NCBI GenBank assembly: GCA_003695265.1 | Contig: RFII01000102.1 | Span: forward strand, 1 to 32,313 | DNA from: Candidatus Woesearchaeota archaeon | GTDB lineage: Archaea; Nanobdellota; Nanobdellia; Woesearchaeales; J072 | Reading direction: 5' to 3' | Length of the DNA: 32,313 bases | In this document: in pieces, positions 13,419-30,253 of the stretch | Position numbering within the stretch: the first letter of the stretch is position 1 | How the letters are laid out: each line of letters begins with the position of its first letter | The notes under the pieces: model-generated | The model's input: only the letters and a program-made list of their open reading frames with translations | What the model was told of the DNA's origin: nothing | Databases searched by the model: none | Position numbers and translations under genes: made by a program

Positions 13419-14576
13419 TTATTCCAAGGCTTTCAGGGCTGGCAGCTCGTTTCCAGCCAGCAACTGCAATGACGCGCCACCTCCTGTTGAGACGTGATCA
13501 ACCTTGTCCTCTAACCCATATTTCCTGATGGCTGCTGCCGAGTCTCCGCCGCCTATTATTGTTGTCGCGCTCAGCTTTGCTATGAATTCAGCGATTTCCC
13601 TTGTGCCGTTAGCAAATTTATCCCATTCAAACACGCCAATAGGACCGCCCCACACAACAGTTTTTGCTGTTTCAAGCGTTTTCTTATATTCCTCAATAGT
13701 CTTTTCGCCGATGTCAAGAATCATCCAACCCTCTGGAATTGAATCAACACCAACGTTTCTTGACTTTGCTTCTTCATCAAACTCATCAGCAACAACACAA
13801 TCTGTTGGAAGCACAATCTTGTCCTTGTGCTCGCTCAAAATTTCCTTTGCAACATCAAAGCTTTCCCTGTCACATTTTGAGCTCTGAACATCGAAGCCCT
13901 CAGCCTTAAGAAAAGTGTTGGCCAGAACACCACCAATAATCAGCTTATCAACTTTTTTCAGAAGGTTTCTTATCACGGAAATCTTGTCCGCCTTTGCACC
14001 GCCGATGATTGCCACAAAAGGCTTTCGCGGGTTCTCAAGGCTGAGCATTCTTATTTCCTTCTCAACAAGAAGGCCGACGCAGCCTGGAATGAATTTAGGT
14101 ATTCCTGTCATTGAGGCATGGTCGCGGTGGCAATTAGAAAAAGCATCATTAACGTAAACATCAGCGTAGGAAGCCAGCTCCCTCGCAAAATTCTCGTCGT
14201 TCTCTTCCTCCTCCTTGTGAAATCGCAGGTTTTCAAGAAGGATAATGTCGCCAGGCCTCATCATATCAACTGCTCTTTTCACTTCAGCCCCGATGCAATC
14301 ATCGAGCTTTTTAACTTTCCTTCCTAGAAGTTCTTCCAAGCGCTCCCCAACTTTAGTCATACTCAGCTTCTCAACAAACTTTCCCTTTGGCCTGCCGTTG
14401 TGAGAAATAATGATTACGCAAGCGTTTTTATCAAGAAGATATTTTATTGTTGGCAAACTCGCCCTTATCCTTTTATCATCAGCGATAGTGCCGTCATCAT
14501 TGAAAGGAACGTCAAAGCCAGCCCTGAGCAGGACTTTCTTGTGCGAAAAATCAAAGTCTTTTAGGGTTTTAACCAT
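13419..14576 (-). CDS. pgk: Phosphoglycerate kinase
   Basis: SHNGRPKG, LLENLRFH, YVNDAF, IGGAK, GGGDS and HVSTGGGASL motifs. Confidence 0.97.
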   Translation of the reverse strand: MVKTLKDFDFSHKKVLLRAGFDVPFNDDGTIADDKRIRASLPTIKYLLDKNACVIIISHNGRPKGKFVEKLSMTKVGERLEELLGRKVKKLDDCIGAEVKRAVDMMRPGDIILLENLRFHKEEEENDENFARELASYADVYVNDAFSNCHRDHASMTGIPKFIPGCVGLLVEKEIRMLSLENPRKPFVAIIGGAKADKISVIRNLLKKVDKLIIGGVLANTFLKAEGFDVQSSKCDRESFDVAKEILSEHKDKIVLPTDCVVADEFDEEAKSRNVGVDSIPEGWMILDIGEKTIEEYKKTLETAKTVVWGGPIGVFEWDKFANGTREIAEFIAKLSATTIIGGGDSAAAIRKYGLEDKVDHVSTGGGASLQLLAGNELPALKALE

Positions 14577-14577
14577 C

Positions 14578-15573
<996 letters not shown>

Positions 15574-15644
15574 TTATCACCTTTTTTTTACTAATTTATT
15601 GGCTGAGCATTTATATATTTTGCTGAAAAGATTAAGAAAAAAAT

Positions 15645-18053
15645 TTATTTTCTTCCAAGCTGCTTTTCCTTCTCAGAAATCCTCAGCGTAGTCCTGATAA
15701 CCGTGTCAGGGTTCAGGCTTATGCTGTCAATTCCCTGCTCGACAAGGAACTCTGCAAAGTCAGGGAAGTCGCTCGGAGCCTGGCCGCAAATCCCTATTTT
15801 CCTTTTATTCTTCTTTGCAACTGAGATAACGTGGCTTATCAGCCTTTTCACAGCCTCGTTTCTCTCGTTGTAAATGCTTGAGACGAGCTCTGAGTCGCGG
15901 TCAAGGCCAAGTGTTAATTGGGTCAAATCGTTTGAGCCTATGCTGAAGCCGTCAAATATCTTGCAGAACTCGTCAGCGAGAACAACATTGCTGGGAATTT
16001 CGCACATAACATAAACCTGCAATCCGTCCTTTCCTCTTACCAAACCATTCTTCCGCATTTCAGCCAATACTTTCTTGCCTTCCTCAACAGTCCTGCAGAA
16101 AGGAATCATTATCTTAACATTCTTCAAACCCATCTCGTTGCGCACTTTTTTTAATGCAGCGCATTCCAAGGCAAATGCCTGCCTGTACTTTGGAGAATAA
16201 TACCTTGAAGCGCCTCTCCACCCAATCATGGGGTTGTCCTCTTTCGGCTCATAAAGAGTTCCTCCAATTAGGTTTGCGTACTCATTGCTCTTAAAATCGC
16301 TCAGCCTCACAATAACATCTTTTGGATAGAAAGCGGCTGCTATCGTTGCTATGCCCTGCGCCAGCTTGTCAATAAAGAACTGTTTTTTGTCAGAATAATT
16401 GCAAGTCAGCTCGTCAATCTGCCTTTTTATGTGATGGTCTTTTATCTTTGAGTAATTAAGCAAAGCCAAGGGATGGATTTTTATGTAAGAGTTTATTATG
16501 AATTCTTCTCTTGCCAGCCCAACCCCATCATTTGGTATGAATGATTTCTCGAAAGCAGAGTCCGGCTCGCCAACGTTCATCATCACTTTTGTTTTAGTCC
16601 TTGGGAAATGAACCAAGTCGTGCTTCTTAACTTCAAAAGGTAGTATTCCCTCATAAACAAAGCCCTTCTCGCCGGAGCTGCAGTCAACAGTGACAGGCTG
16701 GCCCTGCTTAAGAACTTCAGTGGCGTTGTTAGTGCCGACAACGCAAGGAATACCCATTTCCCTTGAGATGATTGCTGCGTGGCAAGTCCTTCCGCCGCGG
16801 TTAGTTATAATAGCAGAGGCTATCTTCATTATGGGCTCCCAGTCAGGGTCTGTCATCTCAGTAACCAATACTTGGCCCTGCTTAAAATTATTAATGTCTT
16901 TCACGTCCTTTATCACGTTGACTTTGCCAGCGCCTATCTTAGAGCCGACGCTGTTGCCCTCAACCAAAACTTTGCTTTTTCTTTTCAGAACGTATTCCTC
17001 AAACCGCGTGATATCTTTTTGAGACTGTACTGTCTCAGGCCTAGCCTGCACTATGAACAGCTTTTTTGTCTTGCCATCCTTGGCCCATTCCATGTCCATC
17101 GGCATAAAACGGCCGTGCTTATGAGAGTAATGGTTTTCAATAATAACAGCCCACCTCGCAAGCTGAAGTATTTCATCATCACTTAAAACGAATTGCTTGC
17201 GATGAGCAGCGTCAACAGGCACATTCTTTGTTGTCTTGTTTCCTGACATGTCATAAATCATCTTTATGTGCTTCTCACCCACTTTCTTGCTGATTATAGG
17301 CCTGTAACCTTTCTTCAGAGTGGTTTTGAAAACGTAATACTCGTCAGGATTCACAGCGCCTTGAACGACATTCTCGCCAAGACCGTAAGCACCGGTTATG
17401 AAAACAGCCTCCCTAAAACCTGACTCAGTGTCTATTGAGAACATAACGCCTGAGCACGCGAGGTCTGACCTCACCATTTTTTGCACTCCTATTGACAATG
17501 CAACCTGAAAATGGTCGAAGTGCTTGTCTTCTCTGTAAGATATTGCTCTGTTTGTGAATAGGGAAGCGAAGCATTTCTTGCAGGCTTCAAGCAAAGCGCG
17601 CTCACCCCTAATGTTGAGGTATGTTTCCTGCTGGCCTGCGAAGCTCGCGTCAGGCAAATCCTCTGCTGTCGCGCTTGAGCGAACAGCAACGTCGGTGTTT
17701 CTGCCGTACTGCTTGCAAAGCTGCTTGTAAGCTGAAACTATTTCATCTTTAAGCTCGGGCGGAAACTCTGCACTCAGAATAAGCTCCCTAATCTTATGTC
17801 CTGTGTGCTGCAGGCTTGTAATGCTGCTCGGCTTAAGGAAGAAAAGCGCTTTCTTTATTTCCTTGTCAAGACCTGCTTTCTGAATGAAATAACGGTAGGC
17901 GTCAGCTGTTATTGCAAAGCCGTTAGGAATATTAACCCCTTTCTTGGTGAGGTTTTGGTACATCTCGCCGAGAGAAGCGTTTTTTCCGCCAACAATAGGA
18001 ACATCTTTAATAGTTAATTCCCTAAACCAGAGAACAAATTTGTGCTTTGCCAT
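15645..18053 (-). CDS. ppsA: Phosphoenolpyruvate synthase (pyruvate, water dikinase)
   Basis: VGGKNASLGEM, AVRSSATAEDLPDASFAGQQETYLN, phospho-His motif GGRTCHAAI and SIGSNDLTQ; ATG 18053 follows GGGGTTGAT. Confidence 0.96.
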   Translation of the reverse strand: MAKHKFVLWFRELTIKDVPIVGGKNASLGEMYQNLTKKGVNIPNGFAITADAYRYFIQKAGLDKEIKKALFFLKPSSITSLQHTGHKIRELILSAEFPPELKDEIVSAYKQLCKQYGRNTDVAVRSSATAEDLPDASFAGQQETYLNIRGERALLEACKKCFASLFTNRAISYREDKHFDHFQVALSIGVQKMVRSDLACSGVMFSIDTESGFREAVFITGAYGLGENVVQGAVNPDEYYVFKTTLKKGYRPIISKKVGEKHIKMIYDMSGNKTTKNVPVDAAHRKQFVLSDDEILQLARWAVIIENHYSHKHGRFMPMDMEWAKDGKTKKLFIVQARPETVQSQKDITRFEEYVLKRKSKVLVEGNSVGSKIGAGKVNVIKDVKDINNFKQGQVLVTEMTDPDWEPIMKIASAIITNRGGRTCHAAIISREMGIPCVVGTNNATEVLKQGQPVTVDCSSGEKGFVYEGILPFEVKKHDLVHFPRTKTKVMMNVGEPDSAFEKSFIPNDGVGLAREEFIINSYIKIHPLALLNYSKIKDHHIKRQIDELTCNYSDKKQFFIDKLAQGIATIAAAFYPKDVIVRLSDFKSNEYANLIGGTLYEPKEDNPMIGWRGASRYYSPKYRQAFALECAALKKVRNEMGLKNVKIMIPFCRTVEEGKKVLAEMRKNGLVRGKDGLQVYVMCEIPSNVVLADEFCKIFDGFSIGSNDLTQLTLGLDRDSELVSSIYNERNEAVKRLISHVISVAKKNKRKIGICGQAPSDFPDFAEFLVEQGIDSISLNPDTVIRTTLRISEKEKQLGRK

Positions 18054-18113
18054 ATCATCAACCCCTTTTTTTGAAAGTAATAAACTCACAGAAGAATAAA
18101 TGGTATTTAAATA

Positions 18114-19295
18114 TTATGATTTCCTCACAAAAAGGCTTTCTTTCACAATATCCTGAACTGTTTCCAAGTCATTAATGTTTGCTTTTTCGCGCAAATTCAT
18201 GCGGGCAGACGCCCTGACTAGGCGCATAATGCCGTGAACGAGCCTTGGCGAGACTTCAACAAGGAACTCTTTCTCGGAAGATTTTAAGTGGTTGACAAAG
18301 TCAGAGATTGCAGTCTTAATCTCTGAGGGTATCTCAACTTCAAGGCTTCCGGCATAATCAACGTAGCGCTTTACAAAGTCTTTGTCATTCCTGCTGACTT
18401 TTTTCTGCCTGCCCTCAAGAATCTTGTTGGTTATCCTCATGAATTTTTCCCTGTCAGGCTTTCTCATCATAAACACCAAGTGAAACCTTGAGAGCATCGC
18501 AGCATCAAAAGGAATCTGCTTTTTCAAAACCTCAACTGTCCTGCCTACGAACTGCTCGCCGGAAGGGTTTGCAGTCGCTATTATTTTCACGTTAGCATCA
18601 AGCCTGTGGTGGTGGTCTGCCTTGTCATAAGTTATAAATCCTTTTTCCATAGCATTGTAAAGAGAGGCGCGGTCAGTCGGCCTCATAAGGTTAAGCTCGT
18701 CAATAGCGCATATCCCGTTATGCGCCAAAGGCAGCAACCCTTTTATTATCTTGCCACCCTTTATTGTCATTGACAGCCCGGCTGAGCTAGTACCTGAGCC
18801 GAGGCCGAAGCTTGAGATGGGGTGAAGCTCGCTGCTTGACCTTATTATGTCTGTTTTTCCTGTTCCAGGATCGCCTAAAAGAAGTATGTGAATCGGGTCA
18901 TCAACAAAAAGCTGCAAAGCAGCTGCTTTTTTTATAAGGTCGGCGCCTATTATGTTAGGAGCTATAAGGGTTGGGATTAATTCATGGGCTTTTTTTGAGA
19001 ACAGCTTGAAAGCTTTTTCATAAGCGTTTCTTTCAATCTTCTTGTTTGTTTTTTCCACAAAGCTTTTAAGGCCGGGAACGCCTTGCCTTAACCTCAGCTG
19101 AACGTACTCCTGCTCAGAAACGAGGCTGTCAGAAACACCTATTCTAGTGTAAAAAAGGCTGATCTTGTTCTGCTTCAAGAACTTCTTTGTTTGCTTAAAG
19201 CTTTCCCTGTCAAGGCACGCTTCAAGAAAGTCAAGCATGTTAAGCTCTTCCCTGCTGAAAGGCCTTGCAAGCCTCAGGATATCCATAACTGCCAT
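18114..19295 (-). CDS. Short MCM-family AAA+ ATPase lacking the canonical MCM N-terminal domain
   Basis: IAPNIIG, Walker A HILLLGDPGTGKT, TSSAGLS, Walker B GICAIDEL, AMEKG, ATANP, arginine finger LSRF, sensor-2 SPR; only about 105 aa precede the AAA+ core; start codon uncertain (19295 or 19286). Confidence 0.85.
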   Translation of the reverse strand: MAVMDILRLARPFSREELNMLDFLEACLDRESFKQTKKFLKQNKISLFYTRIGVSDSLVSEQEYVQLRLRQGVPGLKSFVEKTNKKIERNAYEKAFKLFSKKAHELIPTLIAPNIIGADLIKKAAALQLFVDDPIHILLLGDPGTGKTDIIRSSSELHPISSFGLGSGTSSAGLSMTIKGGKIIKGLLPLAHNGICAIDELNLMRPTDRASLYNAMEKGFITYDKADHHHRLDANVKIIATANPSGEQFVGRTVEVLKKQIPFDAAMLSRFHLVFMMRKPDREKFMRITNKILEGRQKKVSRNDKDFVKRYVDYAGSLEVEIPSEIKTAISDFVNHLKSSEKEFLVEVSPRLVHGIMRLVRASARMNLREKANINDLETVQDIVKESLFVRKS

Positions 19296-19443
19296 TGATT
19301 TTGCTTTGATTCGGTTTAATTTAAAGTTTTTGGTAAAGGAAAATATAATTAACATTTTTTTACAAGAGGAGCAAACTATATTAAACCATGACTCAACGAG
19401 TTGGGTTCAAGAGGGCCGCACCCATTGTAAAAAATTAAAAAAG

Positions 19444-19474: not shown

Positions 19475-20032
19475 ATGAACAAAATAATAAAAGATTCTAT
19501 TCTTACTGTTCTTCGCCGGATGAGGAAGGCATTGAAGCAGCGTGATTCCCATCTTCTTGCAAAGCTGAGCAATTTCACAATACACAACTCAAGCATATTT
19601 CAGGATGAGGACTCAATAACAACTGCTTTGGTGGCGTATGCTCTTTCAAAGATTATTGCGCGCGAGAAAGACCAGATTTCTGATTCTGACGTTGATTACA
19701 TAAGAAAAGCAATTCAAAAACTGCAGGATCACTTAAGGAAAAATCAGGAGGAACTCTTCAGGGATGATATGAACACGTTAATTGAGGACATAAAAAGATT
19801 GGACAGCAAAGTCTCAATATACTTTGATGAGATCCTGCAAAAATCAAGGATTAAGAAAGGAAGTGCGATTTACTCGCATGGCATTTCGCTGGCAAGAGTT
19901 GCAAAAATATTGGGTGTGAGCCAATGGGAATTGATGAGCTATGTTGGCAACACAAGAATAATAGATGAGGAGGAAAAGGAAAGCGTAAAGAAAAGGCTCG
20001 CTTTCGCAAGAAGCCTTTTCGAGCTTGTGTAA
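19475..20032 (+). CDS. Helical protein with a C-terminal HTH (UPF0175-like)
   Basis: GISLARVAKILGVSQWELMSYVG helix-turn-helix pattern; directly upstream of the PIN gene. Confidence 0.75.
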   Translation: MNKIIKDSILTVLRRMRKALKQRDSHLLAKLSNFTIHNSSIFQDEDSITTALVAYALSKIIAREKDQISDSDVDYIRKAIQKLQDHLRKNQEELFRDDMNTLIEDIKRLDSKVSIYFDEILQKSRIKKGSAIYSHGISLARVAKILGVSQWELMSYVGNTRIIDEEEKESVKKRLAFARSLFELV

Positions 20033-20033
20033 A

Positions 20034-20729
20034 ATGAGCCGTAATAAATCCTTGGTTTTTGATGCCGGGCCGCTTATCAGCTTGACATCAAACAACCTGT
20101 TGTGGATTCTGAAAAAGCTGAAAAAGCATTTCAAAGGGGAATTTTACATAACGTCAGAGGTCGAGCAGGAACTAGTGCATAGGCCTTTGAACAGCAAGAG
20201 GTTCAAGTTTGAGGCATTGCAAGTGATGAAGGAGATTAAGAAAGGGGTCATAAAAGTTGTTGACAACGAGCGCATAAAGAGCCTTGCTAAAGAATTAATA
20301 GGGCTTGCAAACCACTGCTTCAGCGCCCACAATAATTACATTCAAGTGGTTCATATGGGTGAGATGGAGGTTGTTGCTACAGGAATCCTGATGAACGCAT
20401 CTGCTCTTGTAATAGATGAGAGGACGATGCGCTACCTGATAGAAAACCCCATAAAAGTCAAGAGGAGGCTGCAAAGAAAGCTACACACTTATGTGCATGT
20501 TGACAAAACCGCGTTAAAAAAACTGCAAAGAAGGCTGCGCGGCTTGAAAGTAATAAGGTCAGTCGAATTAATATCTGTCGCGTATGAGATGGGATTATTG
20601 AATGAGTACATACCAGACCTGATAGAATCAAAGAGCATTCTCTTGGATGCAGTTCTTTGGGGAGTAAAGATAGACGGCTGCGCTGTTTCAGAGAAAGAGA
20701 TTGACGAGATTGAGAAGCTCATAAAGTAG
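20034..20729 (+). CDS. PIN-domain protein (DUF3368-like putative ribonuclease)
   Basis: PIN acidic residues in LVFDAGPLI, VEQEL, HMGEME and LVIDER; ATG 1 nt after the upstream stop codon. Confidence 0.8.
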   Translation: MSRNKSLVFDAGPLISLTSNNLLWILKKLKKHFKGEFYITSEVEQELVHRPLNSKRFKFEALQVMKEIKKGVIKVVDNERIKSLAKELIGLANHCFSAHNNYIQVVHMGEMEVVATGILMNASALVIDERTMRYLIENPIKVKRRLQRKLHTYVHVDKTALKKLQRRLRGLKVIRSVELISVAYEMGLLNEYIPDLIESKSILLDAVLWGVKIDGCAVSEKEIDEIEKLIK

Positions 20730-20766
20730 AAAGTATTTTATATTAAAAACAACAAGTATTAAAAAA

Positions 20767-21141
20767 ATGATTGAAAAATCAATAATCACTTTGATATCGT
20801 TTTCTGTTTTAGTTGTGGTCATATATTTTTTGAGGTTCAGGATAATCACAATAGTCCAGCCGCTTTTCAAAAAAATGGGCGAAGAATACCACTTTGTTGA
20901 GCAGGACCAAATAGTTAAAGGAGTCAATGCTTTGCTTTTATCTTTCGCGTTCTCTATGATGCTGGTGTTGTGGTTTATTTACCTCAGCTTTTTTGATTTT
21001 GATAAGAGGATTAGTTGTATAATAATATTTATTATACTCTTAGTGATAGTAGTGTTCTCGCTTTTGTCCTTTAGGCATTTTGTGAAGGCTTTTAGAATAG
21101 CGAACGAGGTGCACGCAGGCCCGAAAAGGGAACATAAGTAA
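20767..21141 (+). CDS. Hypothetical membrane protein (about 3 TM segments)
   Basis: 124-aa ORF with three hydrophobic segments. Confidence 0.65.
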   Translation: MIEKSIITLISFSVLVVVIYFLRFRIITIVQPLFKKMGEEYHFVEQDQIVKGVNALLLSFAFSMMLVLWFIYLSFFDFDKRISCIIIFIILLVIVVFSLLSFRHFVKAFRIANEVHAGPKREHK

Positions 21142-21186
21142 AGTTTATATAAATCAGGCGCATGCGAATTTCTTGAGGGGTGTGCT

Positions 21187-22704
21187 TTGCTGAAAGGCCA
21201 GATAATATCAGGAGACTTTGGAAACATAATTGTGAGGCAGAAAGCAGGCCGGGAAATCGAGCTTGGAGAGCTCTTAGTTTCTGAAGACGGCAGAATGCTG
21301 TTTGAGGTTGTTGACTTGCGCTTCGGAAGCCAGATATCAGAGCAGAACCGCGAGCTTATTTCAGGAATGGACCTTGAGGAGAACGCTGACACAGAGCTTT
21401 TTGAGAAAGAGCTCAGGAATTACACGATAGCAGTGCTGAAGCCTGTAATCAGGATTGGAGAAAAAGCTTCTCTAGTGAAGACACTTCCAGTTTTCCTTTC
21501 AAAAGTAAGGGAAGTTAAGGAAGAAGACTTGAAATTCTTAACAAAGCCAAAGAACCCGTTGTTTCTTGGAAAGCTGAGGTCAGGATCAAAAGTTATGAAT
21601 GTTGATATTTTCCTGGATGCTGCGAAAGCTCTCTCGCACCACATCCTCATCCCGGCAACAACTGGAAGGGGGAAATCTAATCTTACAATGGTCATGCTGT
21701 GGGGGCAGCTTGACAAAGACTATTGCGGTGTTTTGGTTCTTGACCCTCATGATGAGTATTTTGGAAGGCATAAACTTGGCTTAAAAGACCACCCGAAAAG
21801 CGAGAACCTTGTTTATTACACGATGCGCAGCCCGCCGCCAGGGCAGAGGACTCTTAAAATAAACGTAGAGCAGATAAAGCCTAATCATTTCAACGGCGTC
21901 GTGGAATGGAGCCAAGCACAGCACGAAGCGCTGGCAGCTTATCATAAAAAGTACAAAGAAAAATGGGTTGAAGCTATAATAAAAGAAAGGCCTGTTGACA
22001 ATTTTAACGAGGCAACGTTGAGTGTGATTAAAAGAAGAATGCTCAGCCTCCTTGACTTAGAGCTGGACAGCTCTGGAGTTTACTGCAAAGGAATATTTGA
22101 CTTCTCAGCAGGCGAAACAACAATAAGGGATATTGTGAACGAGCTAATAAAAGGAAAAACAGTTGTGATTGACACTTCGTACCTGTCAGGAGCTGTTGAG
22201 ATACTCGTCGGCTCATTAATAACAACAGAAGTCTTCAGCAAATACAAGCATTTCAAAGCGACAGGAGAGCTGAAAGACAAGCCAGTAATCAGCATTGTTC
22301 TTGAAGAGGCGCCGCGCGTCTTAGGAAAAGAAGTGCTCGAGAAAGGAAGCAATATTTTCAGCACAATCGCAAGAGAAGGAAGAAAGTTCAAGGTAGGTCT
22401 GACAGCAATAACGCAGCTGCCAAGCCTAATACCAAGGCAGATTTTAGCCAATATGAACACAAAAATAATACTCGGCTTGGAAATGGCTCCTGAAAGAAAC
22501 GCGATAATAGAATCAGCGTCCCAGGACTTGACAGAAGCTAGCAAAAGCATCGCTAGCTTAGACATAGGAGAAGCAATAATAAGCTCAAACTTCGTGAAGT
22601 TTGCAACTCCAATAAAAATCCCTTTGTTTGAGGAAATGGCAAAAAGCGCAAAAGATAAAAAACTTGAGGAAAATAGCTTTGAAGGAGTAAAACTGGGTGG
22701 GTAA
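21187..22704 (+). CDS. herA: HerA/FtsK-superfamily ATPase (HerA-like DNA translocase, DUF87)
   Basis: N-terminal HAS-barrel-like region, [14 protein letters not shown]alker A, LDPHDEY, IVLEEAP Walker [13 protein letters not shown] and TQLPS; TTG start after GAGGGG. Confidence 0.88.
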
Positions 22705-22705
22705 T

Positions 22706-23173
22706 ATGAGAAGTATGAAATCAATTGACAGCCAGATAAGGCACTTGCTTGAGCAGAAAGAAGAGATTCTGGAAAAAGTCCTTGACAAATACGTAAAAAA
22801 CGCAGTTGAGAAATCAAGAGAGATTATTGTCCTGTTAAGGCAGATTATTTTTCAAAACAGAAACTCGAAATTGGGCGAAATAAAAGGCAGGATTAAAGAG
22901 GTTCTTGACGCCTTAGACAAAATAATTCCTGAGCTGCCAGAAGGACCGTCAAAAGAAATGATTGAGAAGGACAGGGATAAATGGAATAAGAACTACGAAT
23001 ACGTTGAGGATGTAATGTCAGGAAAAGAAAGACCTGACTTAAATGACTTAAAAGTCGGGCTGGAAAGAAATTTTACAAGGCTTGGCAGAGACCTTGTTGA
23101 GCTTGCAAAAAAACTGGCCGACCGACTGGAAAGAGAAAAAGACTTACTATGGTCTGAACAACAAGAATTCTAA
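22706..23173 (+). CDS. Hypothetical all-helical protein
   Basis: ORF coupled to the herA stop codon; charged helical sequence; no family recognised. Confidence 0.7.
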   Translation: MRSMKSIDSQIRHLLEQKEEILEKVLDKYVKNAVEKSREIIVLLRQIIFQNRNSKLGEIKGRIKEVLDALDKIIPELPEGPSKEMIEKDRDKWNKNYEYVEDVMSGKERPDLNDLKVGLERNFTRLGRDLVELAKKLADRLEREKDLLWSEQQEF

Positions 23174-24651
23174 GACTTTGGCTTCCAAATCCTTGCTATT
23201 TTCTCTTTCTTATTATACTCATCTATGTACTTGCCAACCTTGTCAGGAAGTATTTTCTTCAAGCTGGCAGAGCTCTCATGAAGTTTCGCAAGTTTTTTCT
23301 CTATGTTTCTCGTTATCGCCTTGTAAAAGTCAGGGCTTGAGTAAATAAGGCCGTCAACAATCCTCTGGTAAGCGGATGTGCCGTCAAGAGCAAAGACTAT
23401 GTATCCGCGCTTTCCACCTATCAACTCTGAATAAGTGTCCATGCCGGCATAAATCTTTTTGTAATCAGCGTAATAAACTCCTCCAGCCTTTGAGCTAGGG
23501 TCAAGTATTAAAAGCTCGTCTCCATTAACGCCTAAGCACACAGAGTAATGCGCGCTTTTTGCAGAAGGGAAAAGAACTGACTTCTTGTAGTCAACAATTA
23601 TTAAGGCGTCTCCTTTCAGCCAAGATTTCACCTCTTCCTTCAGGTTTGTGATCTTGTCAACATCTATCCAGACGCCAAGAACCTTGTTGTCAGTGAGTTT
23701 TTGCACAGCTCTTATAAGGTCAGCGGGTTTTGTGCCGCCAGGCACCTGCGCGTTTGCTTTCTTGCCTATTTCCTCCTGGCTGAACTCAAAACCGAAAATG
23801 CTGAGAACAATTGAAGCTGATGCCGGGCCGCAATAGCTGGGCGTTTGAGCAACGAATTTTTCCTTAATGCTCTCAAGAGTGCTCAGCCTTGTCCTGACCT
23901 TTTTATAATACAGCCCTTTGTCAAAAAGCTCCTTGTAAGGCACAAAATAATAAAAGTTTCCACTAGGCTTGGTCAGTATTCCCTGAGCCTTGAAAGACTT
24001 GACTTTCACCAAATCAGCACCGACCTTAATGTACTCGCCAACCTTGATCATGCCGCTTGACTTGATAAACCAGCCTGCAAACAGGTTTTTTATGAAATCC
24101 TTTGCACCGAAAAACGCCAGCAACAAGACAAATAGAAGGATTGGGTAAAATATGAAGCTGAGAAATGATATGACAGCGCTTATGTTCACGCCAGCAATGT
24201 TCAAAGCAACCAAAACAAATATTATGTAAAGAATGAACTTGATGATAGCAAGCAAGTTATACGTTATGACATCCTTGCCAGACTCTTCCAGCAGTGTAAG
24301 TAGGCCGCTGCCCTCCAGAAAACGGTTTATTATCAGGAAGATGAACTGCACCACAAGAACAACAAGGACAAAGAGAAGGATTATTGAAAGGATTGTAGGA
24401 GTGTAAGAGTACAGCTCAACAAGCCAATCAGCAGTAATGCTTATCTTAAGGTAGCTTAATGATATGCTGATAAACACGAAATTTATTACGTAAAACACCA
24501 ACTTTGCGATGCCAGGCTTCTCCAAGTCAGTCCTGTAATGCTTCCTGTACGATGATGTTATGAAGCGCTCGCTTATCTTTGACAAAGAAAACCCAAACAG
24601 AACTATTACAAAACTAATTATCAGCTTAAGCGTGACAGGGTCAATAACCAT
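23170..24651 (-). CDS. MscS-like mechanosensitive channel fused to a C39-like cysteine peptidase
   Basis: About five TM helices, then FGAKDFIKNLFAGWFI...IKVGEYIKVG (MscS TM3 and beta domain); C-terminal QTPSYCGPA (Cys274), AHYSV (His368), LILDPS (Asp384). Confidence 0.82.
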   Translation of the reverse strand: MVIDPVTLKLIISFVIVLFGFSLSKISERFITSSYRKHYRTDLEKPGIAKLVFYVINFVFISISLSYLKISITADWLVELYSYTPTILSIILLFVLVVLVVQFIFLIINRFLEGSGLLTLLEESGKDVITYNLLAIIKFILYIIFVLVALNIAGVNISAVISFLSFIFYPILLFVLLLAFFGAKDFIKNLFAGWFIKSSGMIKVGEYIKVGADLVKVKSFKAQGILTKPSGNFYYFVPYKELFDKGLYYKKVRTRLSTLESIKEKFVAQTPSYCGPASASIVLSIFGFEFSQEEIGKKANAQVPGGTKPADLIRAVQKLTDNKVLGVWIDVDKITNLKEEVKSWLKGDALIIVDYKKSVLFPSAKSAHYSVCLGVNGDELLILDPSSKAGGVYYADYKKIYAGMDTYSELIGGKRGYIVFALDGTSAYQRIVDGLIYSSPDFYKAITRNIEKKLAKLHESSASLKKILPDKVGKYIDEYNKKEKIARIWKPKS

Positions 24652-24736: not shown

Positions 24737-25942
24737 ATGAAATTCGCGCACATGGCGGACTGCCACATAGGAAGCTGGAGGGATCCTAAGCTCAGGGACG
24801 CAAGCACAAAGGCGTTCTCAAAAGCAATTGACATTTGTTTAGAGGAAGATGTTGATTTCGTGCTAATAGCAGGAGACTTGTTCAACACTGCACTGCCCGG
24901 AGTTGACCTTCTGAAAAGCGTTGTTGCAAAGCTTAAAGAGCTCAAGGACAAAGGAATACCTGTTTACGGCATTGCAGGAAGCCATGACTTCTCGCCGAGC
25001 GGAAAAACAATGATAGACGTCTTGGAAAATGCAGGCCTTTTTGTCAATGTTTGCAGAGGAAAAGTCGAGGACAAGAAATTAGTCCTGGAGTTCACCACTA
25101 ATGAAAAAACAGGGGTGAAGATTACTGGAATGCTGGGCAAGAGGGGAATGCTGGACCGCAAGTTCTATGAGCAGCTTGATTCCAAAAGCCTTGAAAGAGA
25201 AAATGGGAGAAAGGTATTCCTTTTCCACACATTGCTGTCAGAGCTCAAGCCAAAAGACCTTCAGATGATGGACTCTTCTCCATTATCATTGCTTCCAAAA
25301 GGTTTTGATTATTATGCTGGAGGGCACCCCCATTTTGTTCTTACAAAAAAAGAGGAAGGCTATGGCGTAATAGCTTATCCTGGCCCTTTGTTCCCGAACA
25401 GCTTCAAGGAAATGGAGGATGTAAAGATTGGCGGCTTTAACATTGTTGAAGACTGGAAGATAAGGCATGTTAATGTCCAGGTTTACAACGTTCATAACAT
25501 AAGCGTTGACTGCAACCACAAAACGCCAGAGCAGGTTAAGGCGGAAATACTGGAAGGCATAAAGAATAAGGAATTCATCCACACCATTGTTACAATAAGG
25601 CTTTTCGGCGTTTTAGAGTCAGGAAAGGTTTCAGACATCGACTTCGGCGAGATAAGCAGAATGCTTTATGAGAAGAGCGCTTTCGCAGTCCTCAGAAACA
25701 CGTCCGGCTTAAGCTCAAAAGAGTTTGAAGAAGTAAAGGTATCGCAGGGAAGCGTTGACGAGATTGAGGACAGGATAATAAGGGAGCACGCAGGCCAGAT
25801 AAGCATTGGGCTGGACAGGGATAAAGAGATAACGCTGACAAAGAAACTTATTGACGCGTTGAACATGGAAAAAGCAGAGGGCGAGCGCACTTCAGACTTT
25901 GAGGCAAGGGTTTTAGAAACAGTGAGGAAAGTTCTTGAATAA
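24737..25942 (+). CDS. mre11: Mre11/SbcD-family DNA repair nuclease
   Basis: Five phosphoesterase motifs: HMADCHIG, IAGDLF, IAGSHD, FLFHT and YYAGGHPH; YPG motif and capping domain. Confidence 0.9.
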   Translation: MKFAHMADCHIGSWRDPKLRDASTKAFSKAIDICLEEDVDFVLIAGDLFNTALPGVDLLKSVVAKLKELKDKGIPVYGIAGSHDFSPSGKTMIDVLENAGLFVNVCRGKVEDKKLVLEFTTNEKTGVKITGMLGKRGMLDRKFYEQLDSKSLERENGRKVFLFHTLLSELKPKDLQMMDSSPLSLLPKGFDYYAGGHPHFVLTKKEEGYGVIAYPGPLFPNSFKEMEDVKIGGFNIVEDWKIRHVNVQVYNVHNISVDCNHKTPEQVKAEILEGIKNKEFIHTIVTIRLFGVLESGKVSDIDFGEISRMLYEKSAFAVLRNTSGLSSKEFEEVKVSQGSVDEIEDRIIREHAGQISIGLDRDKEITLTKKLIDALNMEKAEGERTSDFEARVLETVRKVLE

Positions 25943-28564: not shown

Positions 28565-29563
28565 ATGGAACGCAAACCAAGGCTCTTTTTTGAAGAAGGA
28601 ACTGCGCCGAGAAAAAAAGCTTCTTCAAAAAAGACAAAAAGATATGCGCCTGCCAAAAAAGTAGCAAAGAAAACGCAAAAAAAAACAAAGGGTAAGCCTT
28701 CTAAAAAAAAGGCGCTTTCCAAAAAAACCACACATCAAATAGGTGTTAAGTCCGGAAAAGTGCAAATTAAAGGAGCTTTTGATATGGGTGCTGTTAAGAA
28801 GGCAATCGAGCAAAAACTACAGAAAAGAGAACTGCAAGAATCATTTAGTGATGAAGGAGAATTTTTTATCGGTGAAAAAAGAGTAGCAACAGGCATTCCC
28901 GGGCTTGACAGGGTAATGGAAGGCGGCTTCAGAATAAACACTTCAAACCTAATCGTTGGCGGTGCTGGCTGCGGCAAGTCAATATTCTGCATGCAGTTCT
29001 TAGTTAATGGCATTGACAAATACAATGAAAACGGAATTTACATATCTTTTGAGGAGAGCGAGGACAAAATACTTAAGGATTTTGAGAAGTTTCCATGGCA
29101 CCTTAAAGAAAAAATTAAGAGCAAAAAACTTGTTATATTATCTTACACTCCGGAGCAGGTTGCCAAAGTCCTAAGCGTTGGGGGTGGCACAATAAGGGAC
29201 ACTATAGAGTCAATAGGAGCTAAAAGAATTGTTATTGACTCATTAACCGCCTTCACACTTTTGCATGAAAATGAGCTGACAAAAAGAAAAGAACTCCTAA
29301 AACTGTTCGAGTCCATATACAAATGGAATGTTACAGCGCTGTTGACTGCTGAGCATGAGCCTGACCCGGATAGGCATGAGTCAAATGTTTTAGAGTTTGA
29401 AGTTGATGGTGTTATATTATTATATAATGTTAGGAAAGGAGACATAAGGGAGCGCTCTTTAGAGGTTTTCAAGATGCGCGGAACAAAGCATTCAGCAAAG
29501 ATTTACCCAATGAAAATAACAGACAATGGAATAATAATTTACCCTGATGAAACGGTGTTTTGA
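28565..29563 (+). CDS. KaiC/RAD55-like single-domain RecA-superfamily ATPase with a Lys-rich N-terminal extension
   Basis: RVATGIPGLD, Walker A GGAGCGKS, ISFEE, RIVIDSLT and KMRGTKH; TTTAAATA ends 24 nt before the ATG. Confidence 0.9.
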   Translation: MERKPRLFFEEGTAPRKKASSKKTKRYAPAKKVAKKTQKKTKGKPSKKKALSKKTTHQIGVKSGKVQIKGAFDMGAVKKAIEQKLQKRELQESFSDEGEFFIGEKRVATGIPGLDRVMEGGFRINTSNLIVGGAGCGKSIFCMQFLVNGIDKYNENGIYISFEESEDKILKDFEKFPWHLKEKIKSKKLVILSYTPEQVAKVLSVGGGTIRDTIESIGAKRIVIDSLTAFTLLHENELTKRKELLKLFESIYKWNVTALLTAEHEPDPDRHESNVLEFEVDGVILLYNVRKGDIRERSLEVFKMRGTKHSAKIYPMKITDNGIIIYPDETVF

Positions 29564-30253
29564 ATGGAAAGGTTGCCAACAGGAATTGACGGTCTTAACA
29601 AGATTATTCAAGGGGGCTTTATAAAAAACTCTGTTAACCTTGTTGTTGGCGGGCCCGGCTCCGGAAAGACAATATTTGCCACGCAGTTCCTTATGGAAGG
29701 ATTAAGGAATAATGAGGGCTGCCTGTACATAACATTTGAGGAAAAGAAAAAGAAGTTTTATAATGACATGCTTGCCTTCGGCTGGGACCTTGCTAAATAT
29801 GAAAAGTTAGGAAGATTCGTTTTCATAGAGTACAGCCCTGAGCAGGTAAGAAACCTGATAGTAAAGGGCGGCGGCGTTATTGAGGATGTTATCAAAGATG
29901 CAAAAATTAGGCGCATAGTTATTGATTCCATAACATCTTTCTCACTGCTTTATGATGATCGTCTTTCAAAAAAAGAGGCTGCACTTGACCTTTTTGAACT
30001 CTTGGACAAGTGGGAATGCACTTCTGTAATGACTTCGCAGGATGAGAGCTTTAGTGACGAGCTCATAGCCAGTTCTCTTGAGTTTGAGGCTGACGGTATA
30101 ATACTTCTTTACCACATCAGAAAAAAAGGCCACAGGGTAAGAGCTTTAGAAATCCTAAAAATGCGTGGAACAAAGCACCCTAGTGACATCGTGAAAGTTG
30201 AGATAACACCAAAAGGAATTGTTGTTGATCCAAAAACAGTTGTTGTTTTCTGA
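29564..30253 (+). CDS. KaiC/RAD55-like single-domain ATPase (tandem paralogue)
   Basis: RLPTGIDGL, GGPGSGKT, ITFEE, RIVIDSIT and KMRGTKH; starts immediately after the previous stop codon. Confidence 0.92.
   Translation: MERLPTGIDGLNKIIQGGFIKNSVNLVVGGPGSGKTIFATQFLMEGLRNNEGCLYITFEEKKKKFYNDMLAFGWDLAKYEKLGRFVFIEYSPEQVRNLIVKGGGVIEDVIKDAKIRRIVIDSITSFSLLYDDRLSKKEAALDLFELLDKWECTSVMTSQDESFSDELIASSLEFEADGIILLYHIRKKGHRVRALEILKMRGTKHPSDIVKVEITPKGIVVDPKTVVVF

Follow-up and report, generated by a model that had tools for sequence, protein, structure and literature searches.

We analysed a 32,313-nucleotide stretch of DNA from a Candidatus Woesearchaeota archaeon (contig RFII01000102.1 of assembly GCA_003695265.1; hereafter the window) and found that one of its genes joins the core of an MscS-type membrane channel to a papain-fold peptidase. 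This MscS–peptidase fusion is real, is conserved and is built from two known folds, and it is apparently undescribed. The reading that we tentatively favour, and which we place somewhat below an even chance, is that the peptidase is active, is anchored in the membrane at the mouth of a channel without the MscS cage, acts on short glutamyl or isopeptide substrates, and derives from a make-and-break module that included RimK-type ligases. The parts of the gene, in window coordinates and amino acid (aa) positions, are as follows.

23170..24651, minus strand: whole gene, encoding the 493-aa fusion of an MscS core and a papain-fold peptidase (open reading frame, Pfam, neighbour scan)
24190..24630, minus strand: membrane helices 1–4, about aa 8–27, 48–68, 85–108 and 131–154 (hydropathy, model)
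24055..24174, minus strand: equivalent of the pore helix (aa 160–183) and a TM3b-like segment (aa 184–199) (profile, model)
23902..24051, minus strand: MscS cytoplasmic beta-domain (aa 201–250), with invariant G205 (Pfam of homologues, profile, fold alignment)
23380..23889, minus strand: papain-fold peptidase domain (aa 255–424), lying between the C39-like, phytochelatin-synthase and Pei families
23845..23847, minus strand: Gln269, at the oxyanion-hole position, aligned to Gln64 of NsPCS, the phytochelatin synthase of the cyanobacterium Nostoc
23830..23832, minus strand: Cys274, at the nucleophile position, at the start of helix 274–285 (alignment, model)
23548..23550, minus strand: His368, at the start of strand 367–376 (alignment, model)
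23500..23502, minus strand: Asp384, at the end of strand 379–384, retained in catalytically dead relatives too
23407..23409, minus strand: Arg415, aligned to the Arg of the C-terminal RG motif of NsPCS and lost with the catalytic residues in dead relatives; a candidate carboxylate-binding residue
23173..23379, minus strand: conserved C-terminal tail (aa 425–493) of three helices and a last strand (485–489) with near-invariant Trp489; a candidate oligomerisation or docking element

An original prediction, made from the sequence alone, had described one uninterrupted 493-aa open reading frame carrying Gln269, Cys274, His368 and Asp384, and this is what the minus strand holds; the plus frame is full of stops. 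An assembly artefact is ruled out by relatives in other genomes and by a spanning contig, from run X1, that has zero differences within the open reading frame (X1 is possibly the source sample, so this contig is not independent). Among 8,000 candidates scored, 87 proteins matched at E ≤ 1e-3, mostly over their full length, and the relatives extend across DPANN genomes, so the fusion is not peculiar to this assembly. With the query alone, Pfam placed the peptidase domain above the cut-offs of Peptidase_C39_2 (27 bits against 24) and Peptidase_C39 (23.1 against 22) and below that of Phytochelatin (PF05023; 21.6 against 24.9). The channel half was invisible to the same scan (no MscS family at E ≤ 0.05) and to an NCBIfam scan for MscS, and phmmer against the PDB returned just three chance matches. 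Single-sequence searches thus missed the channel, and family profiles were required. Across 70 homologues, Peptidase_C39_2 (PF13529, a broad and mostly uncharacterised family) matched all 70 and Phytochelatin 60 at E ≤ 0.01, the MscS beta-domain (PF00924, MS_channel_2nd) matched 52 and the conserved MscS helix 22, and a profile of the N-terminal half matched Escherichia coli MscS at E 1e-12; the predicted kinship with MscS is therefore borne out by the family. An AlphaFold2 monomer model built from 106 sequences (mean predicted local distance difference test score (pLDDT) 87; predicted template modelling score 0.70) and the Atlas's own model of the protein give the same two assignments, an MscS core and a papain fold. 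A promoter and terminator scan at the gene stayed at chance level. Public database entries for family members are annotated by one domain or as hypothetical. The fusion was absent from the literature searched, in which subscription journals were mostly uncovered and supplements excluded (nanohaloarchaeal genome papers could list the gene there); nor did that literature describe any characterised MscS-type channel that contains an enzyme, in line with the prediction's remark that it knew of no characterised protein of this architecture.

Hydropathy finds five hydrophobic helices and the model five long ones (5–39, 47–67, 74–115, 127–152 and 158–199), in agreement with the estimate of about five. 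Their positive-inside pattern suggests that the C-terminal domains are cytoplasmic, and the five-helix layout appears YnaI-like. The membrane helices, TM3b and beta-domain align with E. coli MscS, YnaI and miniature channels (fold Z 11–12). Against E. coli MscS, the model aligns over residues 19–180 only (Z 11.9, root-mean-square deviation (rmsd) 5.5, 162 aligned), and helical matches at a Z of about 11.9 are weak on their own; the motifs of TM3b and the beta-domain are kept across the 106 sequences. The alignment to E. coli MscS ends at residue 180–181, and in the query model the papain fold follows. The alpha/beta cage domain (MS_channel_3rd, PF21082) matched none of the 70 homologues, though it was detectable in a canonical neighbour. 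In this the fusion resembles TcMscS, a heptameric mechanosensitive channel that conducts and gates without a cage (PMC12334622), and the 171-aa miniature MscS structures 9sdg and 9seh. It is unlike the MscS family in bearing an enzyme domain of 170 aa and a tail of 70 aa, in its five membrane helices and in its Gly/Ala-poor pore helix. The model is of a monomer; the protein would form a homo-oligomer, possibly a heptameric ring of peptidase sites.

How the peptidase came to lie under the channel is suggested by the other MscS-type genes. In a sample from the class, the channel part occurred alone in 86 of 200 other genomes, very often as an open frame of about 160–220 aa, and the genome of the window has such a stand-alone, cage-less mini-MscS of 198 aa (G000:C86, locus L083:3578-4174, minus strand). 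Because such proteins are common in the class and one sits in the same genome, the likely course is that the channel was truncated first and gained the peptidase later. The prediction that it takes the place of the cage thus stands for its position and for the missing cage domain, and probably fails as an account of its origin. Cage-less mini-MscS proteins of 160–220 aa look widespread in the class, and the TcMscS paper calls loss of the cage unique (PMC12334622). Two further genes of that genome encode an MscS of 350 aa and a helix-only relative of 226 aa, and no MscL gene was found there.

The peptidase domain begins about five residues after the beta-domain in the model and is modelled with high confidence (pLDDT 88–98), with the papain-fold elements in canonical order: Cys at the N terminus of a helix, His and Asp on adjacent strands, and the oxyanion Gln. 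The predicted papain-fold signature holds, and Gln269, Cys274, His368 and Asp384 align with the catalytic set of NsPCS. The highest structural score was to the pseudomurein endoisopeptidase PeiR (8z4h; Z 17.2–17.4, rmsd 2.0, 147–148 aligned), followed by NsPCS (Alr0975; 2bu3 and 6th5) at Z 16.4–16.9; together the two span rmsd 2.0–2.2 over 147–161 residues and are tied within 1, and the C39 domains of the peptide-exporting ABC transporters ComA and PCAT1 scored 15.0 or less. Foldseek ranked NsPCS first to sixth, and the domain profile matched NsPCS over the whole domain at E 5e-10, against E 0.003 for PeiR and E 0.05–0.14, over about 50 residues only, for ComA and PCAT1. The predicted C39-type label accordingly survives in the Pfam assignments and fails in detail, in that the best match is not a PCAT-type C39 leader peptidase; by sequence, the nearest non-fusion proteins are stand-alone C39-like ones that are uncharacterised. 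With NsPCS, the fusion shares, beyond the four catalytic residues, G306, M404 and the R415–G416 motif; it is unlike NsPCS in having Lys357, Ala389 and Gly390, a His–Asp spacing of 16 rather than 18, and a membrane tether. These replacements at the second site and the spacing, with the Pfam score, exclude a true phytochelatin synthase. From PeiR, the fusion differs in that Pfam detects no pseudomurein-binding repeat and in its predicted cytoplasmic location, which would not suit a wall lysin. Phytochelatin synthases take gamma-Glu at P2, and Pei enzymes may do so too. NsPCS itself mainly hydrolyses glutathione to gamma-Glu-Cys (PMC3855540).

Relatives of the fusion are numerous, with 50 representatives at E ≤ 1e-30 (50% clustering), and one is encoded in 115 of 184 pattern-matched stretches in GTDB, of which the best 80 of the 115 were returned. 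Their titles name Woesearchaeota, Aenigmarchaeota, Nanohalarchaeota, Nanoarchaeota, Asbonarchaeum, unclassified archaea and several 'uncultured Methanosarcinales'; this last set nests among Woesearchaeota sequences in the tree and is probably mislabelled. Profile searches found the fusion in 26 of 250 genomes of the window's order, Woesearchaeales (one match cut by a contig end), in 8 of 61 relatives including the genome of the window, in 64 of 70 genomes of the nanohaloarchaeal phylum and in 9 of 38 from the phylum to which locus L044 belongs; a sample of 200 other genomes from across the class had no copy. When one dead copy served as query, a scan of metagenomes gave no match. The tallies for the 250 genomes include six unpublished genomes (G309, G328, G373, G393, G395 and G397), all of which encode RimK and none of which has the fusion. 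Searching for short relatives gave 24 proteins, most of which look like fragments of the fusion. Two soluble relatives, P0135 and P0137, start with Met, are 232–236 aa long and carry the peptidase region without the channel, as split or stand-alone forms.

A FastTree phylogeny of 117 rows, unrooted and set at its midpoint so that the order of events is only suggested, fell into three large groups. The window's group (67 rows, support 99) carries a DYKK motif and includes none of the 14 rows flagged as dead. The full catalytic set of Gln, Cys, His and Asp is kept in all 98 distinct DYKK-type cores, compared with 56 of 101 other cores, the remaining 45 being without it; the DYKK label is partly circular, and the tree serves as its check. 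Such strict conservation points, if indirectly, to selection on catalysis in the window's clade. Within the DYKK group, the peptidase is conserved about twofold more than the channel (0.59 vs 0.29–0.32), and in nanohaloarchaea the pore segment reaches 0.52–0.59. Dead copies arose about five to six times on the tree. They keep the fold core, Asp384 and the tail (R430, Y437, Y443, P469 and W489), which active and dead relatives retain alike, and S272, G306, G390, M404 and R415 decay in them alongside the Gln, Cys and His. Because G306, M404 and R415 are both shared with NsPCS and lost with the catalytic residues, they are likely to line the substrate pocket.

Gene context divides the family along the same line. 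We examined 81 motif-seeded loci, which are biased to intact motifs, and loci found by profile, which are not. RimK-like genes lay directly downstream on the same strand in 24 of the 81 (both genes in 23; one cut by a contig end), all non-DYKK; 56 had no RimK, and one DYKK locus had a convergent one. In the nanohaloarchaeal phylum, a ligase pair follows the fusion at all 63 loci with flank, and the catalytic set is complete in 32 of 64 copies and has lost at least one of Gln, Cys and His in the other 32 (one judged by His alone). In the window's order, 24 of the 26 matches are of DYKK type and all of these are intact, and the flanks retrieved for them (mostly 1.5–3 kb and contig-limited for several) contain no ligase pair; one of the other two is dead with a ligase pair downstream, and one is truncated. 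All nine matches in the phylum of L044 are intact, with no RimK within 1.5 kb. Among 17 metagenome loci seeded from the basal group, 12 have both ligases, one the first only (at a contig end), one the second only and three neither, these three being a contig end, a DYKK member and a fragment. Where the pair occurs, the first ligase is degenerate and the second keeps nine invariant anchor positions in all 66 rows (duplicates included), and genes for GCS2, a further ATP-grasp protein, a P-loop protein and AstE/AspA recur beside it. The gene of the window stands alone, without such a pair directly downstream: it lies between an Mre11-like gene, from which it diverges across an 85-bp gap, and a HerA-type operon, and is convergent with a 158-aa open reading frame.

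Several features of these neighbourhoods stand apart. In a nanohaloarchaeal run (L064:4326-12015; also L060 and L070) the order is S6e, eIF2-gamma, fusion, ligases, one or two genes, PIN, RpoE1 and S24e, with TrkA/TrkH genes upstream on the opposite strand; fusion and ligases may be co-expressed there with housekeeping genes. A conserved 344-aa P-loop protein is convergent with the ligase pair at L064:9224-10258 (minus strand) and 12 related loci; it has weak matches to MobB and DUF1611 only, and the GCS2 gene alternates with it at the same position. In nine related Woesearchaeota loci, the fusion is followed by a 476-aa protein without a Pfam family (L014:7856-9286, plus strand), a homologue of which, 32–33% identical, is encoded elsewhere in the genome of the window (G000:C22).

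The favoured reading assembles these observations as follows. The protein would be a homo-oligomeric, cage-less MscS-type channel whose cytoplasmic end bears an active papain-fold peptidase, with small glutamyl- or isopeptide-type substrates rather than bulk protein. The family would have begun as the membrane part and 'break' half of a make-and-break module for glutamyl peptides, and the window's clade would have lost the ligase pair and retained the catalytic job. The simplest such job would be to hydrolyse short glutamyl peptides where the pore opens into the cell, either to salvage amino acids from entering peptides or to supply free glutamate that leaves the cell on osmotic down-shock. 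Its place in the cell and the substrates that reach it would probably control the enzyme, rather than membrane tension. What the analysis shows is the two folds, the catalytic set with its strict conservation in the window's clade, and the link to a degenerate and an intact ligase in the two other clades; we infer the oligomer, the passage of ions, the substrate and the direction in which it moves. MscS channels export glutamate (PMC12541555), and RimB trims the poly-Glu made by RimK (PMC11957791). The RimK–RimB and RloABC systems of Pseudomonas likewise combine an ATP-grasp glutamate ligase with a peptidase and are linked to osmotic stress (PMC11957791, PMC12239564); in RloABC, the membrane protein RloB carries a transglutaminase domain that is dead, and the system has a hypo-osmotic phenotype (PMC12239564). 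The fusion is unlike them in that the protease of RimK–RimB is a separate retropepsin whereas here a papain fold sits on an MscS core, and in that the ligases form a degenerate and intact pair, to which the window's own clade has no link.

A number of results weigh against this reading. Catalysis is dispensable in ligase-linked clades, as half of the nanohaloarchaeal copies show, which weakens a simple role as the 'break' half. The window's own genome (94.6% complete) contains neither an orthologue of the ligase pair nor GCS2, and its single RimK adjoins its own RimB-type protease, so that no source of substrate was identified within the genome. Co-occurrence does not help: RimK is present in 23 of 26 carriers of the fusion and 160 of 224 non-carriers (183 of 250 in the order; 177 of 244 without the unpublished genomes), and with RimK near-universal this is uninformative and supports neither side. 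As to the enzyme, toxins with a papain fold and broad proteases also score Z 11–13 against the model, and a shared fold shows no function; of 23 short non-fusion or peptidase-only matches scanned, 22 are C39 or C39_2 proteins of unknown function, and none matches Phytochelatin at E ≤ 1e-5. The second-site residues of phytochelatin synthases, Arg173, Lys206 and Tyr207 in NsPCS (PMC3855540, PMC11314372), are not kept and correspond to K357, A389 and G390; in AtPCS1, R152K alone abolishes activity (PMC3855540). Finally, the channel may not conduct. The pore-lining helix of canonical E. coli MscS is Gly/Ala-rich, and its equivalent in the fusion does not have this pattern, with a Gly/Ala/Ser fraction of 0.21 ± 0.09 across 106 homologues, which leaves conduction uncertain; in the 350-aa MscS of the same genome a Gly/Ala-rich stretch is visible by eye.

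Three further candidates were rejected. The genome's own RimK, considered as a partner, shares 54% identity with a RimK that lies convergent to the fusion in L075, but its lineage is separate from that of the operon ligase, its neighbour is the RimB-type protease, and it is near-universal across the order. In G473, a ligase pair situated 7 kb away from the fusion belongs to a lysine-biosynthesis-type operon and groups with LysX. The channel's own C terminus is not a plausible substrate for glutamylation, as it has no conserved terminal Glu (31 of 107 non-DYKK and 7 of 91 DYKK rows, duplicates included). In the rimB–rimK pair itself (G000:C31, L081:1168-2618, minus strand), the gene immediately upstream of the one for the 363-aa RimK encodes a retropepsin-type protease (PF05618).

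The uncertainty over conduction leads to the strongest rival, which we consider unlikely and yet worth weighing: that the MscS fold does not conduct and is an oligomeric anchor concentrating the active peptidase, and elsewhere also the ligase pair, at the membrane. The bulky pore helix fits this, as do the low conservation of the channel half in the window's clade, where it is the least conserved part, the failure of the query alone to match MscS models in Pfam, the presence of other MscS-type genes that could act as valves, and the soluble forms P0135 and P0137. It accounts less well for the retention of the beta-domain and TM3b motifs throughout the family and for the conserved pore segment of nanohaloarchaea; moreover, the stand-alone mini-MscS of the same genome has an equally bulky helix, and TcMscS conducts without a cage (PMC12334622).

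The dead copies raise the reverse coupling, in which the papain-fold domain would be a lid that binds a ligand or partner and filters or gates the channel in the stead of the lost cage, the ligand being a glutamyl product or the ligase pair, with catalysis, where kept, only resetting the signal. That inactive copies, over some five to six origins, still have their fold core, tail and ligase pair is what such a lid would predict. We nevertheless hold it to be rather unlikely, since the window's clade has no dead copy and no ligase pair, and since the decay of candidate pocket residues in dead copies argues against retained ligand binding.

Only slightly more doubtful is a prokaryotic mechano-enzyme in the wider sense, in which tension would open the pore and switch on, or give access to, the ring of peptidases, turning stress into cleavage of glutamyl peptides or of a protein target, and in which other clades would have recruited the RimK pair into a machine for storing and releasing glutamate under osmotic control. 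The original prediction had proposed a tension-gated protease; in this protein-directed form, channel opening would rearrange the ring and switch on cleavage of a protein target, and this we consider improbable. With some five residues between the beta-domain and the peptidase in the model, coupling would be geometrically possible, and in MscM helix movement passes to the cytoplasmic domain (PMC13591265). Plant DEK1 offers a precedent in concept only: it is a multi-pass membrane protein in which a membrane domain is tied to a mechanically activated current and a cytosolic cysteine protease (PMC5647327, PMC10912778), unlike the fusion in its membrane domain and protease family and in being eukaryotic, and no search of the fusion turned up a calpain or DEK1 match. 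Set against coupling of this kind, the gene has no conserved neighbour in the window's clade that could be a target or regulator, the domain persists without catalysis in 45 of the 101 non-DYKK cores or, counted over nanohaloarchaeal copies, in 32 of 64, and the closest folds, together with the gene context of other clades, point to small-peptide chemistry.

The weakest alternative, a PCAT-like exporter in which the domain would cut off a leader peptide and let the product out through the pore, has for it the clan fold shared with ComA and PCAT1 (Z of about 15), the Peptidase_C39 score above its cut-off, a peptidase tethered under a membrane transporter and a His–Asp spacing of 16, which we take to be that of ComA-type C39 domains, and is highly improbable given that the protein lacks any ABC or ATPase module and that ABC genes do not recur beside it (which excludes a bacteriocin-processing ABC transporter as such), that its peptidase is C-terminal rather than N-terminal, that neighbouring open reading frames of 70 aa or more include no conserved small precursor gene, and that phytochelatin synthase and PeiR are better matches.

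Elsewhere in the window, a five-gene run on the plus strand (19475–23173) ends in a HerA-type ATPase (21187–22704), preceded by a small membrane protein, and the 158-aa open reading frame, which is helical. The fusion gene separates this run from the Mre11-like gene (24737–25942), beside which no Rad50 ATPase was identified. The minus strand encodes a 413-aa MCM-like AAA+ protein without the usual N-terminal domain (18114–19355; model positions 280–590 of 682), a run of phosphoenolpyruvate synthase, bacterial-type class I GAPDH and PGK (13419–18089) and a 926-aa gingipain-family (C25) peptidase with a propeptide, in a small archaeal genome (3899–6679). Tandem KaiC-type ATPases of 332 and 229 aa lie on the plus strand (28565–30253).

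The fusion family is old and widespread in DPANN archaea and near-core in nanohaloarchaea. It splits into an always-active, ligase-free clade, to which the gene of the window belongs, and ligase-linked clades with repeated loss of catalysis, and this split offers natural controls for two questions: whether a mechanosensitive channel and an enzyme can be coupled, in either direction, and what archaeal RimK-type ligases, which are many, make. With its small size and single gene, the protein can be tested in E. coli. If the mechano-enzyme reading were true, osmotic or host-contact stress would be turned directly into cleavage of peptides or proteins; even the conservative reading would reveal an undescribed route for handling glutamyl peptides at the membrane of host-dependent archaea.

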